NCBI GenBank assembly: GCA_036387915.1
Contig: DASVSV010000208.1
Location: 1 to 62,127, forward strand
DNA length: 62,127 nt
Source: Thermoanaerobaculia bacterium
GTDB lineage: Bacteria > Acidobacteriota > Thermoanaerobaculia > Gp7-AA8
Direction of reading: 5' to 3'
Shown: in pieces, positions 15,202 to 51,786 of the stretch
Numbering within the stretch: the first letter of the stretch is position 1
Layout of the letters: each line of letters starts with the position of its first letter
Notes under the pieces: generated by a model
Database searches by the model: none
The model's input: the letters and a program-made list of their open reading frames with translations, nothing else
What the model was told of the DNA's origin: nothing
Made by a program: the position numbers and the translations under genes

Positions 15202-15651
15202 CTATCGCGGCGGTTTGCAGGTCTGGTAGCTGCGGTAGAGCAGGGTGATGCTGCTGGCCGCGCTTTTATCGTCGTAGACCGAGTAGAGCTGCCCCCACGG
15301 CCAATCTGTTTTAGTGCTGCCGAGCGTGCGGACGAGCCACTCGTCGTGGCTCTTGCGCCGCGCTTCCTCTTTCTCCCGCGACCAGTCGTCCCACGACGTG
15401 CCGAAGCGCGGATCGCCGTCGATCAGGGTGATGCTGTGCAGGTGCTCGTCGTGAAAGAAGAGCGAGACGAGAAACTGTCGTCCGTCCACGAGCTGCGGCC
15501 GGAGGACCGCGTTGAACCAACCGGCTTTTTCGTTGGTGTAATCGCCGCTCACGAACATCGGCGAAGCGAGGGCCGACGACTTCGTGGTGTCGCGGCTGAC
15601 GACGCCTTCCGGCGTCGTCAGCTCACCCGTTAGAGGATCGATCTGAATCAT
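15202..15651 (-). CDS. Putative immunity protein for the RHS C-terminal toxin
   Basis: 149-aa cytoplasmic-looking ORF with no signal peptide. Its ATG overlaps the TGA of the RHS gene (ATGA at 15648-15651), the canonical position for a polymorphic-toxin immunity gene. No family was recognised. Confidence 0.65.
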   Translation of the reverse strand: MIQIDPLTGELTTPEGVVSRDTTKSSALASPMFVSGDYTNEKAGWFNAVLRPQLVDGRQFLVSLFFHDEHLHSITLIDGDPRFGTSWDDWSREKEEARRKSHDEWLVRTLGSTKTDWPWGQLYSVYDDKSAASSITLLYRSYQTCKPPR

Positions 15652-18600
15652 TTCTTCATATTAAACACGCGCACCGGCTCGAGGACGTCGGCGTACGACT
15701 CGATGAAATACTGGAATCCGCCGCCGCCCCCATGCTGGCGATTCGCTCTGGTGAGGCCGGCCGGCACCTCGATGTCTTCCTTTACACGATAAGCCTGAAT
15801 CCGGTCGCGGGGCGGGTACTTGCCGGGGCGCATGTCGACCTGAACGAGGTCATGGTAGTCCTTCTGGTTGAGCTTGCTCTTCTTGATCGTCGCCAGATCG
15901 GTGTACCACTGCCCCTGACCGGGGAACGCACCGTAAATGAGCTGACCCTTCTTCAGGCGTGTGATGCGGTATTTATCCTGGCCGCCGTACCCGGGATAGA
16001 GCTGCGCGTTGCGCGCCCGCTCGATCTTCCCGGCGCGGCGCTCGCCCAGGTTCGCCGCGGCCGCGGGTGTACGATTCGACACCGCCTGTCCGCGCACGTT
16101 GCGTCCGCGCTTCGCCCCGAGGGCAGTCAGGGCGAGCTGCGCGGCGGAGACGCCGCCGCGTGTGTAGTCGCCGTGTACCACCGCCTCGTGCAGCGAGATG
16201 GCTGTCTGTGCAACGGTGACGGCGTTGTCGACACGGTTCACAATGACCGACGCGCGCAGGACGGTGCGGACCACGCGGCCCGCGCGTCCAGCCATCGAGG
16301 CGGCGCGTACCAGCACGCCTCCACCCATGCCGCCGGTGGCGACGTTCGCGAGCACGGAGGCGCCGGTGAGCGCCATCCGCATCGCGTACTCCTTCCCGTC
16401 GATCCCCCCGGTCGCGTACTGATACGTGTCCCAGGCCGCGAAGGCGATGTCGACGGCGAAGCCCCACGCCTCGCCGGTGGGATCGTTCTTGTTGATCGGA
16501 TCGTTCGCCGCGTACGCATAGAGGTTCGGCGAGTCGACGTAGCCGCGAGGATCGGGGGTCAGCCAGGTGCCGGTACGCGGGTCGAACCAGCGCGCGCGCA
16601 CGTAGCTCTTGCCGGTCATCGGGTCGAGGAACGGGTGCGCGTGGAAGCTGGACGAAACGATCAGCGTGACCGGATTGCCGATCGGTGAGCCGGCCATGCG
16701 CGGCGTGCCGAGCGCGTAGAGGCTGGGAACGTCGTAGAGCGCGGTGGTCTGCTGTTCGTCCGCCGGGAGCGCGGCGAGCCACTGCGACAGATTGGCCAGC
16801 GACTCACGCACTTCGAGCGGCAGCAGCGCAGATGTGTACACCGGCTTCGTTGCGACCGCCCACGCCGGCGCGGCGAGGAACGGCTGCGCCGAGCTCCACG
16901 CTTCGGCGCGTGCGTCCTTCGTCACCGCGATCGAGAGAGCGGACGGCGTCAGGGTCTGGCCGTCCACGACGACCGGCTCCGTCGAGACGAGCGTGTTCCA
17001 CTCCGCCTCGGTCAGGCTCCACTGCACCGTGGCGCTGTTGATGAGCGACGGTGCATTGGTGGCCGCGCGCACGACCTTGCCGGCCGCGTCGATGACCGCC
17101 AGACGCACGCCTGCCGCCAGCGTCGACGGCGCGAAGTGCTCGGTGGACCGCAGCAGCACGTCGACGGCGGTGATCTTGCCATCGGGGTCGCGGCGCGCGG
17201 AGACCGAGACGCGATCGACCGCGCTGCCCTTCAGCACTGCTTCGTCTTCGCCGTACGGGCCGCCTTCGACGCTGCGCGAAACGATGCGTCCCTGTTCGTT
17301 CAGGATGGCGTCGAGTGAGCCGGCACCGCCCTCGTCGTAAATCGGGTAGAGACGGGCAACGCCGTTTGGCGCGGTCCCATCCGCCGCCGCGACTTCCAGC
17401 GGATCGTCGTAGCGCGCGCCGCCATGGATGATCTGGCGCACCAGACCACCGTTCTCGTCGATCTGAGGATTCTGGCTCGCGCCGGCCTTGTAGATGGCCA
17501 CGAGCTGATCGTCGACCGGGTCCCAGACGAACGTCGCATCCGGCGGAAGTGCGTCGGCGGCGATGACTTCGAAGCGGTCTTCGAGCTTCCAGTCGGTCTC
17601 GGTCGGATTGCTCGTCGCGCCGGCGTACTCCGCGCGGCGGCCCACCATGCGGTCGTCACCGCTGTAGAAGTACTTCACGCGACGGGGCGAGGCCGATTTC
17701 TGCGTGACGACGGAGAGACGGCCCTTCAGGTCGTATTCGTAGATGAACTGCCCGTCTTCACTGCGCTCGCCGCCGTTGAACGAGAACGCCTCGGCGGCGC
17801 TGCCGCGCTGCATCGACGCGATCTTGTGTCCCGGTGCTTCGCTGAACAGCAGCGACGGCGGATCGACCGGAGTGGTCTTCGTACGCATGAGCGCCGAGCG
17901 GAAGTCGGCGGAGTTGAGGTCCGCGCCATCCGGCGTGGAGCCTCCGTCGCGGGCGAGGCTGGTCGCGGTGAGACGGCCGCGTCCGTCGTAGGTCCACTCA
18001 TCCGCCCGCGCGCCGCCGGAGACGCCGAGGAGCTGCGCGCGGGATTTCTGGATGCCGTCCCAGGTGACGAAGGACCCGGCAACGGTGAGGCCACCCGATT
18101 TGACTTCCATCTTGTTGGGCAGGCCGGTGCCGCTGTCGTATCCGTAATCGCGCACGATCTGCGAGCCCGTCACGGTCGTCACGACGCGGCGGTCAGGACG
18201 ATTCGCGTTGCGGTAGTCCGCCTGCAGCAGTGAGCCGCTTCCGGCGCCGCCGGACATCTGCCGTTCGATGCCGATGAGATTGCCCATGGCGTCGTGCTGC
18301 TGCGTCACCGACCGCGTCCACGCGTTCGCCGATGAGAAGCCGGAGTACGTCGGCATCGTGAACGACGTCCGCTCACCGTGCTCGTTGTAGGTGTGGCGCT
18401 GCTCGTATTGATCGATCAGCGTGCCGCCGCGATAGCGCGACTGCGTAGTCTTGCCGGCGCGTCCCTCACCGTCGTAATCGTCGTAGTCGACCACCGCGTC
18501 CGGGGTCTTCCAGCGTGTGATCCGTCCAGCGGGGTCATAGGTGTATTCGTCCAGCACCACGCCGCTGCCGCCCGTGGTCCGTTCGATTTGTCCCTTGGCG

Positions 18601-50924: not shown

Positions 50925-50934
50925 GCATTGCCCC

Positions 50935-51786
50935 CTACGGAACGTTCGGGACCGGGGATGACGGGCGGTTCATCAGTTCGAGCTCGTTGGCCACGGCCAC
51001 GTAGCGCGAGACGACCAGACGCGCACCGGCGGGGATGGAGACGAGATCGGCGGGCGGCTGCTCGATGCCGACCCGGACCACGCTCGAGCGGAGCTCGATG
51101 GTGGTCTGGTCGTCGAGGCCGATGGTGATGCGCTGCTCGATGGGGAGCGCGTACAGCTCCTGCGTTGCGGCGGTGGCATTGGTGGAGACGTTGCCGCGGC
51201 GCTGCTCGCGCGTGACGGCGGCGCTCATCACCGCATCGTGCTCGGGGCGTTTGGCGGCCGGATACGCGGCGCCGAGGAGGACTTCCAGCGCGGCTTTGGA
51301 CACGCGGGCGGTGGGGTCGAGCGCGATCTCGACTTTCTGCTTCATGCCCGCCGCGCCGACTTCGGCCTCGAAGTATTCGGCGTTGCGGCCGAGCTTCGTG
51401 GCGCGCATGCCGGTGCTGCGCATCGCGGACGTCGCGCGCGCTTCGGCGCGATCTTCCTTCACCGGCGCCGCTCCGCCGCCGCCGGCCATGGCCACGGCCC
51501 TGGCGATGAGGTCGAAGCGGGTCACGCTGTACGTCGCGGCGTCGCGGTCGATCTCGGTCAGCTCACCGCGCTCGTAGTCGGCGATGGAGGTCTTCGCGCC
51601 GCGCACGGACACCAGGCGGTTGCCGTAGCCGTACTCTTCGAGCACGACGGTGGTATCGGCCAGCGGGTCGTGGACCTGACGCGTGAGGTGCAGCGGCGTC
51701 GGAAACAACGGCTCCGCCGCGCCTGCAGAAGACGACACCAACACCGACAGCAGCGCGCAAAGCGCCGACAGCGCAGCTCTCATCAT
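50935..51786 (-). CDS. Secreted protein of unknown function, first gene of the giant operon
   Basis: ATG 51786 is preceded by AAGGAG at a 6-nt spacing. Signal peptide MMRAALSALCALLSVLVSSSAGA/AEP. The stop lies 10 nt before the GTG of the 5,941-aa gene. The longest ORF (51888) would add a non-signal-like extension. Confidence 0.7.
   Translation of the reverse strand: MMRAALSALCALLSVLVSSSAGAAEPLFPTPLHLTRQVHDPLADTTVVLEEYGYGNRLVSVRGAKTSIADYERGELTEIDRDAATYSVTRFDLIARAVAMAGGGGAAPVKEDRAEARATSAMRSTGMRATKLGRNAEYFEAEVGAAGMKQKVEIALDPTARVSKAALEVLLGAAYPAAKRPEHDAVMSAAVTREQRRGNVSTNATAATQELYALPIEQRITIGLDDQTTIELRSSVVRVGIEQPPADLVSIPAGARLVVSRYVAVANELELMNRPSSPVPNVP

Follow-up and report, generated by a model that had tools for sequence, protein, structure and literature searches.

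In a 62,127-nt stretch of DNA from a soil-type Acidobacteriota bacterium of the Thermoanaerobaculia (GenBank assembly GCA_036387915.1, contig DASVSV010000208.1; hereafter the window), we analyzed a cassette of four co-directional minus-strand genes encoding proteins of 283, 5,941, 5,815, and 149 amino acids (aa). These are a small protein with a signal peptide, two very large proteins termed giant 1 and giant 2, and a putative immunity protein. Giant 2 is a classical plug-shell-core Rhs polymorphic toxin that carries a Sec signal and an adhesin-like N-terminal extension of ~3,900 aa. At a probability of roughly 55%, we read the locus as a Sec-dependent Rhs polymorphic toxin system specific to the Thermoanaerobaculia lineage, equipped with a helper protein and an N-terminal module of giant 1 (the N-domain), and with giant 1 cooperating with giant 2. 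What is new here is the pairing of the giants, the putative helper with its predicted LolA-like fold, and the portable N-domain; the Rhs toxin part is ordinary.

Conserved pairing of the two giant genes

The window corresponds to a JGI metagenome contig (3300034008, Ga0334942_000052, 65.9 kb). The cassette occupies 36,585 of its 62,127 nt (59% of the window). It begins with the small gene (51786..50935, minus strand), which has GGAG 7 nt 5' of its ATG; the mechanical open reading frame (ORF) reaches 51888, and the start at 51786 was preferred, in agreement with the JGI gene call. Giant 1 (50924..33099, minus strand, 5,941 aa, GTG start), giant 2 (33095..15648, minus strand, 5,815 aa), and the putative immunity gene (15651..15202, minus strand, 149 aa) follow. 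The junction between the small gene and giant 1 reads TAG-GGGGCAATGC-GTG, a 10-nt gap with a G-rich stretch ahead of the GTG. Giants 1 and 2 are separated by 3 nt (TAG-AGA-ATG), and giant 2 overlaps the immunity gene by 4 nt at ATGA. The coordinates of the cassette, the sizes of the two giants, the two gaps, the overlap, and the share of the window had all been given in an earlier model-made reading of this DNA (the original prediction), and each was reproduced from the sequence. This spacing suggests that the four genes form one transcript; promoter and terminator scans gave counts at the level of shuffled sequence and were uninformative on transcription units.

Read by eye, the precursors of the small protein, giant 1, and giant 2 each have a basic n-region, a hydrophobic core, and an AxA-type cleavage site, forming signal-peptidase-I-type signals (...SSALA↓GE, ...SLALA↓QT, and ...SSAGA↓AE, respectively). 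This agrees with the Sec signals previously proposed for both giants. No lipobox cysteine was seen in any of these three N-termini, also read by eye.

We scanned species-representative genomes with the mid-region of giant 2 and obtained 21 loci, all from Thermoanaerobaculia or Acidobacteriota metagenome-assembled genomes (MAGs). A giant-1-type gene was followed by a giant-2-type gene in six of the six loci whose downstream side was visible (the window, L011, L013, L034, L035, and L036). The RHS end of the downstream gene was confirmed in four of these; L034 and L035 were checked on the non-RHS N-terminal part only. L011 and L013 encode full-length collinear orthologues of giant 2 (5,816 and 5,900 aa), with the C-terminus of giant 1 directly before each. 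The L011 contig (166,346 bp) has the same accession as the contig bearing the small-protein homologue P0013, and the L013 contig is 66,632 bp long, as is the contig bearing the small-protein homologue P0085. The look-up of full-length giant 1 homologues added L034, L035, and L036. The order in L034 is small gene, 5,842-aa giant, and N-terminus of giant 2, and that in L035 is small gene, 6,235-aa giant, and, 2 nt on, a 5,932-aa giant-2-type gene. In L036, a 5,550-aa giant precedes a gene of 5,059 aa that matches DUF6531, TEN_YD-shell, and RHS. The gaps between the giant genes in relatives range from 2 to 107 nt, and the pairing is kept down to ~33-36% N-domain identity, the level seen in L036. 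Conservation of the pairing, which the original prediction had set as a check, therefore came out positive in every locus where it was visible. The giant 1 C-terminus had no match in two metagenome scans, and the downstream neighbors were taken from full-length homologues. Shorter giant-2-type variants occur in L021 and L030.

The small protein and the giant 1 N-domain

The small gene lies directly 5' of an N-domain gene in nine of ten loci (the window, L006, L007, L008, L009, L032, L033, L034, and L035), and the genes upstream of N-domain genes matched the small-protein family profile at E 1e-65 to 1e-73. This adjacency is the strongest association that we found. The core of the N-domain spans aa 32-176 of giant 1 (50397..50831, minus strand), ends in ...ARNYDVY, and is family-specific; an extended version runs to aa ~285 (to window position 50070, minus strand). 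A full-sensitivity search with giant 1 aa 30-290 yielded 717 cluster representatives, most of them proteins of 3,000-7,090 aa; the orthologous giants came from this search, as a word-indexed one gave nothing longer than ~1,750 aa and did not recover giant 1 itself. In these, the match starts at residue ~3-90, mostly ~20-55, i.e., straight past the signal peptide. The N-domain has no relative in Pfam or in the PDB, the latter searched with a profile of the giant 1 N-region.

Among the homologues is a subset of much shorter proteins that link the N-domain to a nested series of C-terminal pieces of giant-2-type Rhs sequence. Class A fusions (P0168, P0169, P0170, P0202, P0210, and P0220; 835-898 aa) leave giant 1 at aa ~285 and enter giant 2 at aa ~5190. 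The other fusions leave giant 1 at aa 176 (...RNYDVY). Their entry points into giant 2 are aa ~4700 in class B (P0222, P0226, and P0234), aa ~5200-5250 in the class B-like P0227, aa ~4005 in class C (P0231 and P0232; ~1,950-2,000 aa), which contains the whole shell and no DUF6531, and aa ~3545 in P0212, a partial class D. At the constant exit, NYDVY is followed by GRL..., which mimics a YD-repeat junction. All fusion proteins retain the signal peptide and the Rhs core, and their toxins differ (Tox-LHH in P0232). Although the Rhs shells of classes A and B are only partial, these proteins are intact and diversified, with helper-like and immunity-like genes on their flanks. In the three fusion loci examined (L008:2382-5063, L032:5842-11826, and L033:4411-6975), a small-protein homologue was present upstream in all three (E 2.9e-65 to 2.3e-73), and a small ORF lies 3', abutting the stop codon or overlapping it by ≤1 nt. 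The fusions may have arisen by nested deletions in a tandem that existed in an ancestor, or one and the same leader may have been reused as a module on Rhs cargo. Because the N-domain is fused to giant-2-type Rhs sequence, we argue that giants 1 and 2 belong to one functional system. The N-domain, paired with a protein of predicted LolA-like fold and elsewhere fused to Rhs shells, is also a candidate delivery marker that the original prediction had overlooked.

We also considered the N-domain as a paralogue of the Rhs plug. This idea was dropped: although DUF6531 is missing from P0231 and P0232, the N-domain shows no similarity to the plug, and the comparison gave just a weak match to an Ig domain elsewhere. 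Transposase genes (Transposase_20 and Y1_Tnp) flank two of the short N-domain-Rhs cassettes (L008:241-1125 and L032:13100-14059), which suggests that these cassettes are mobile or lie in variable regions. On a 5.89-Mb contig (ERZ25039542; L009:10001-21680), the 559-aa fragment P0161, homologous to aa 104-634 of giant 1, lies beside opposite-strand Rhs genes of 1,494 and 644 aa that are apparently split. An intact small gene and a 5,478-aa giant-1-type gene are located ~9 kb beyond this fragment, and the P0161 region resembles a second copy of the system that has been rearranged or has decayed.

The small protein had no Pfam or NCBIfam match even at E ≤ 10. It has 272 homologues, none of them family-annotated, and all those with a named source come from Thermoanaerobaculia or Acidobacteriota. 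From a 58-sequence alignment, AlphaFold2 produced a model with a pLDDT of 87 and a pTM of 0.81. Foldseek placed LolA (8cgm) first (probability 1.0, E 8.7e-7), followed by 4mxt, LolB (1iwm), RseB, and EPDR1 (ependymin-type), with target-normalised TM scores of 0.45-0.54 against LolA/LolB-type structures. The model thus predicts a LolA/LolB/RseB-like open (unclosed) β-barrel with a helical lid. When membership in the LolA/LolB sequence family was tested, the small protein fell outside it. Accessory LolA/LolB paralogues, such as LolA2/LolB2 of Flavobacterium johnsoniae (PMC11885536) and the BBJ28 cluster of Borrelia (PMC13078400), are comparable in that an extra LolA-fold protein is tied to a specific surface or export function. 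Those proteins act, or are predicted to act, on lipoproteins, whereas here a lipobox is missing from the adjoining cargo proteins, and the small protein is paired with a conserved proteinaceous N-domain. In the papers searched, we found no description of LolA-like proteins with polymorphic toxins or of Acidobacteria giants in such an arrangement.

Another reading is that giant 2 is a self-sufficient, surface-displayed Sec Rhs toxin in the manner of WapA or the bacterial teneurin-like proteins (TLPs), and that giant 1 and the small protein are an unrelated adhesin/helper pair sharing its locus and regulation. We consider this rather unlikely. Giant 2 does bring a signal peptide of its own and an adhesin-type part of ~3,900 aa, partnerless Sec-dependent Rhs/YD toxins have been described (PMC13018210, PMC3482391), and in L015 and L018 giant-2-type genes with their own signal peptide stand with no giant 1 immediately upstream. 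However, the adjacency with gaps of 2-107 nt held in all six visible loci, even at the lowest N-domain identity, and the repeated fusion of the N-domain to giant-2-type Rhs sequence, with the small gene kept, is hard to square with unrelated functions. The original prediction had asked whether the whole quartet co-occurs in relatives; the pairing of the giants stood, but the solitary genes in L015 and L018 did not fit.

These solitary genes are among several points that weigh against a cooperating system. Giant 2 itself has no N-domain, and no small gene was found upstream of the giant 1 homologue in L036, the most distant one examined. The resemblance of the small protein to LolA is at the fold level only (TM 0.33-0.54, ~10% identity, and no sequence-family match). 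The window contains no gene for an outer-membrane translocon or for another known secretion component. Moreover, the loci are a small sample of metagenome assemblies chosen by homology rather than an unbiased census, and our preferred reading of a helper-equipped toxin system is built by computation over such assemblies.

Giant 2 as an Rhs toxin and the architecture of giant 1

We scanned both giants with Pfam on tiles (E ≤ 0.01) and their termini also with NCBIfam. In giant 2, an Ig array of Glucodextran_B, Big_13, and OmpL47-type domains (Pfam/NCBIfam) extends over aa ~250-1260. It is followed by a Big_5 domain, a CarbopepD_reg_2 domain (aa 1751-1816), a second Big_5 domain, and a region with LVIVD-like motifs that is unannotated in giant 2 and carries PF08309 in the homologues P0171-173. 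No family matched aa ~3560-3900 on the Pfam tiles, the stretch ahead of the plug where a bacterial teneurin-like protein would have its TIP domain. The DUF6531 plug lies at aa 3903-3966 (21198..21389, minus strand; PF20148, E 1.4e-7), and the first RHS repeat begins at aa 4029, only ~60 aa past the plug. The RHS/YD shell and the Rhs-associated core (16473..21197, minus strand) were identified by PF05593 (E 7.8e-23 and 2.3e-15) and TIGR03696 (E 4.8e-15). The TIGR03696 core corresponds to aa 5490-5541 and contains a bipartite motif, DPRG at aa 5515 and DPTG at aa 5538 (x19, 23 residues apart). A profile-profile comparison of the LVIVD modules of giant 1 with the mid-region of giant 2 aligned 47 columns, one blade-like stretch, at a probability of 6%, and we do not claim homology between them.

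The variable C-terminal region of giant 2 (aa 5543-5815; 15651..16469, minus strand) is made up of a hydrophobic, Gly-rich linker of ~160 aa and, after it, a TNT-like domain. This last domain (aa ~5701-5808; window 15672-15995, minus strand) is homologous to 6XTD_A over 108 residues (E 3.2e-13), a stretch that takes in the GGGxQ[YF]F motif. 6XTD chain A is the C-terminal NAD(P)+ glycohydrolase of Serratia marcescens Rhs1, a member of the TNT-like family (PMC10539506). The Pfam TNT model gave an E value of only 0.059 on this tail, short of the cutoff. By homology, the toxin domain of giant 2 is a TNT-like NADase, and NAD(P)+ glycohydrolase activity is predicted for it. In a comparison of 11 giant 2 relatives, the sequences diverged completely directly past the core, with a different toxin tail in each. 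A PT-TG pre-toxin domain suspected by eye in the post-core linker was not detected by Pfam and is not claimed.

The 149-aa protein has no relatives in Pfam, NCBIfam, or the PDB, and its position makes it a putative immunity protein, as a downstream immunity gene is usual in Rhs/TLP systems (PMC13018210). The RHS shell, variable toxin, and immunity gene that had been proposed for this end of the cassette are borne out by Pfam, NCBIfam, and the comparison of relatives. Two tandem Rhs toxin genes occur in one MAG (L021:1-3507 and 6668-15400), where a shortened giant-2-type gene of 2,910 aa has, ~3 kb upstream, a distinct Rhs C-terminal gene with a core and a toxin of its own.

Giant 2 resembles classical Rhs pairs such as Pseudomonas protegens RhsA (7Q97) and S. 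marcescens Rhs1 (6XTD) in its plug, shell, DPxG core, exchangeable toxin, and adjoining immunity gene, and its toxin belongs to the same TNT-like NADase family as Serratia Rhs1-CT. Sequence searches of the PDB with giant 2 placed Rhs cages of the T6SS (type VI secretion system) nearest (e.g., 8qja and 7q97), down to E 2.5e-14. A profile search of the PDB aligned the plug and shell of the T6SS RhsA 7q97, from residue 256, at E 6.5e-19. Classical Rhs proteins are T6SS cargo of ~1,400-1,900 aa whose N-termini are PAAR or VgrG-binding. Giant 2, by contrast, combines a Sec signal with a ~3,900-aa adhesin-type part, and no Pfam match to the T6SS markers PAAR, VgrG, and DUF4150 was found on any of its tiles. 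The putative immunity protein is unrelated to RhsI1.

The original prediction had listed no usual delivery marker in the giants, and our scans agree. Neither giant contains PAAR, VgrG, DUF4150, TPS, RTX, T9SS-CTD, PEP-CTERM, LPXTG, autotransporter, or Tc domains (Pfam tiles, NCBIfam termini). The sole NCBIfam anchor match on the termini was a sub-threshold "choice-of-anchor B" (20.7 bits vs. a cutoff of 100). A class of signal-peptide ("T2SS") Rhs toxins has been known since Zhang et al. 2012 (PMC3482391). Bacterial TLPs (Raoelijaona et al. 2026) are Sec-targeted YD-shell toxins with BIG and TTR N-terminal domains, immunity genes downstream, and "no obvious delivery machinery" (PMC13018210). 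Because both groups have been described, the lack of an apparatus does not by itself make an Rhs toxin novel. The original prediction placed too much weight on the missing apparatus, as Sec-signal Rhs toxins with adhesin-like domains and no apparatus were already on record (PMC3482391, PMC13018210).

With Bacillus subtilis WapA, the "T2SS" class of Zhang et al., and the TLPs, giant 2 shares predicted Sec export, N-terminal Ig/TTR domains, an encapsulated toxin, and an immunity gene. In contrast to the WapA/TLP group, it lacks both an NHL propeller separating the plug from the shell and an anchor to the cell wall or S-layer, and it is ~2.5x larger; a tandem with a second giant and a protein of predicted LolA-like fold is unreported for these families. 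That giant 2 is itself a bacterial TLP appears improbable. Its Sec signal, BIG and TTR-like N-terminal domains, plug, YD shell, C-terminal domain predicted to be cleavable, and downstream immunity gene all suit a TLP, a weak precomputed TEN_YD-shell match is present, and Acidobacteriota are among the TLP-positive phyla (PMC13018210). However, TLPs require the order FN-plug, NHL, YD-shell, whereas giant 2 has ~60 aa from plug to first repeat and no NHL or TEN_NHL match. The profile search of the PDB likewise favored T6SS-type Rhs (E 6.5e-19) over teneurins, which aligned to the shell only (E 3e-5).

The original prediction had also drawn a parallel to toxin complexes (Tc), in which giant 1 would be a TcA-like translocation scaffold injecting the contents of the giant 2 capsule, as in TcA + TcB-TcC. 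We judge this very improbable. The locus and Tc (ABC) complexes do have in common a multi-gene arrangement of very large proteins, here two tandem genes of which the second ends in an Rhs cocoon with an aspartyl-protease core and a variable toxin, and the core region of giant 2 weakly matched TcC/YenC2 (E 2e-4 to 2e-3). Unlike Tc complexes, the giants carry Sec signal peptides and no TcA/TcB domains, with no match to VRP1, the TcA pore or receptor-binding domains, SpvB, or TcdB mid-N/mid-C in either giant (Pfam, E ≤ 0.01). The giant 2 cage is nearest to T6SS-type Rhs, and its RHS repeats follow directly after the plug, with no propeller inserted in the shell as a gate. The first 900 aa of giant 1, moreover, comprise β-sandwiches and a small helical domain with a weak likeness to alpha-2-macroglobulin.

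Giant 1 is a multi-domain, fibre- or adhesin-like protein with predicted Sec export. Its first ~900 aa matched no family. An AlphaFold2 model of this region (pLDDT 80) shows β-sandwich domains, a Pro-rich linker, and a ~125-aa helical domain. Foldseek hits to alpha-2-macroglobulin/TEP-type proteins had very low TM scores and point to a generic fold, so membership in that group was rejected. The middle of the protein carries CarboxypepD_reg/TTR-like domains (e.g., aa 983-1049 and 1741-1793), Big_5 (aa 2085-2201), and Big_7 (Pfam). Self-comparison revealed three repeated Gly-rich modules, followed by four tandem modules of ~410 aa at the C-terminus (33102..38027, minus strand), each composed of LVIVD repeats (propeller-type) and an Ig-like domain. 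The C-terminal modules matched Pfam LVIVD at E 5e-16 to 8e-14, have a protein self-similarity of 41-63%, and appear in the DNA as ~1.22-kb direct repeats at a spacing of 1215-1230 nt. Of the propeller and β-helix previously assigned to giant 1, the propeller part was upheld by the LVIVD repeats; the Gly-rich modules, though repeated three times, matched no family, and "β-helix" remains a label given by eye.

We propose the following mechanism. The precursors of the small protein, giant 1, and giant 2 would cross the inner membrane via Sec. In the periplasm, the LolA-fold protein would act on the N-domain, whether as carrier, as chaperone, or as a tether to the outer membrane, and this action would bring the cargo to the cell surface or keep it there. 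Giant 1, with its TTR/Ig arrays, Gly-rich modules, and LVIVD modules, would form a long surface fibre that cooperates with giant 2, which would display its Rhs capsule to a neighboring cell. Autoproteolysis at the DPxG core would then free the predicted NADase into the target, where NAD(P)+ would be depleted, and the 149-aa immunity protein would shield the producer and its kin. An envelope of the diderm type is consistent with the OmpW and PagL genes on the L034 contig and a TamB/Omp85-type gene on the L006 contig.

A further, more tentative proposal is that the LolA-fold protein and the ~145-aa N-domain (giant 1 aa 32-176) constitute a new Acidobacteriota export or anchoring pathway for giant fibres and, via fusion or a partner giant, for Rhs toxins. 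The N-domain would then represent a new class of "trafficking domain" beside PAAR, TPS, and LXG. The 2026 TLP paper named as an open question the way in which Rhs/YD toxins exported by Sec, with neither T6SS nor Tc partners, get to their targets. The locus offers a handle on toxin delivery through a putative helper with a predicted lipoprotein-carrier fold, an N-domain shared by ~6,000-residue fibres and Rhs toxins of ordinary size, and the giant pairing. Should the module be a genuine route for trafficking, it would give polymorphic toxin biology a further delivery class and help explain how huge proteins are displayed on the diderm surface in poorly studied soil Acidobacteriota. Otherwise, the locus would still provide a clean case of an Rhs toxin armed with a predicted NADase in an uncultured lineage.

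Regulatory region and neighboring genes

The genes flanking the cassette are housekeeping genes, encoding enolase, signal peptidase I, a SpoIIE-type phosphatase, cystathionine and cysteine enzymes, SelB, and PolA. Divergent from the small gene lies a gene for a 142-aa MarR-family regulator (51964..52392, plus strand; PF01047/PF12802), which may control the operon. The 177-nt region between the two genes (51787-51963) contains TTGACGG...CCTGTCAA with an imperfect palindrome, TTGACGGTCTGAACGCCCCCTGTCAA, which could be a MarR operator overlapping the -35-like TTGACG. A MarR gene is also present upstream in the related locus L006, where it is non-adjacent.

Further genes were noted near small-gene homologues in two relatives. 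In L007 (JGI 3300064033; L007:6186-9382), three genes lie ~600 nt upstream of the homologue, and two of them belong to the Bacillus_HBL family (a tripartite pore-forming toxin component). In L006 (L006:1-4645), a 2,388-aa AsmA/TamB-like protein with POTRA/Omp85 is encoded on the opposite strand ~5 kb upstream; this gene is probably housekeeping, yet it places an outer-membrane translocation-type protein near the locus. Finally, just outside the operon in the window, a ParE-family toxin gene (103 aa) and a 75-aa upstream partner, presumably its antitoxin, are located between the rhodanese and enolase genes (13245-13780, minus strand).

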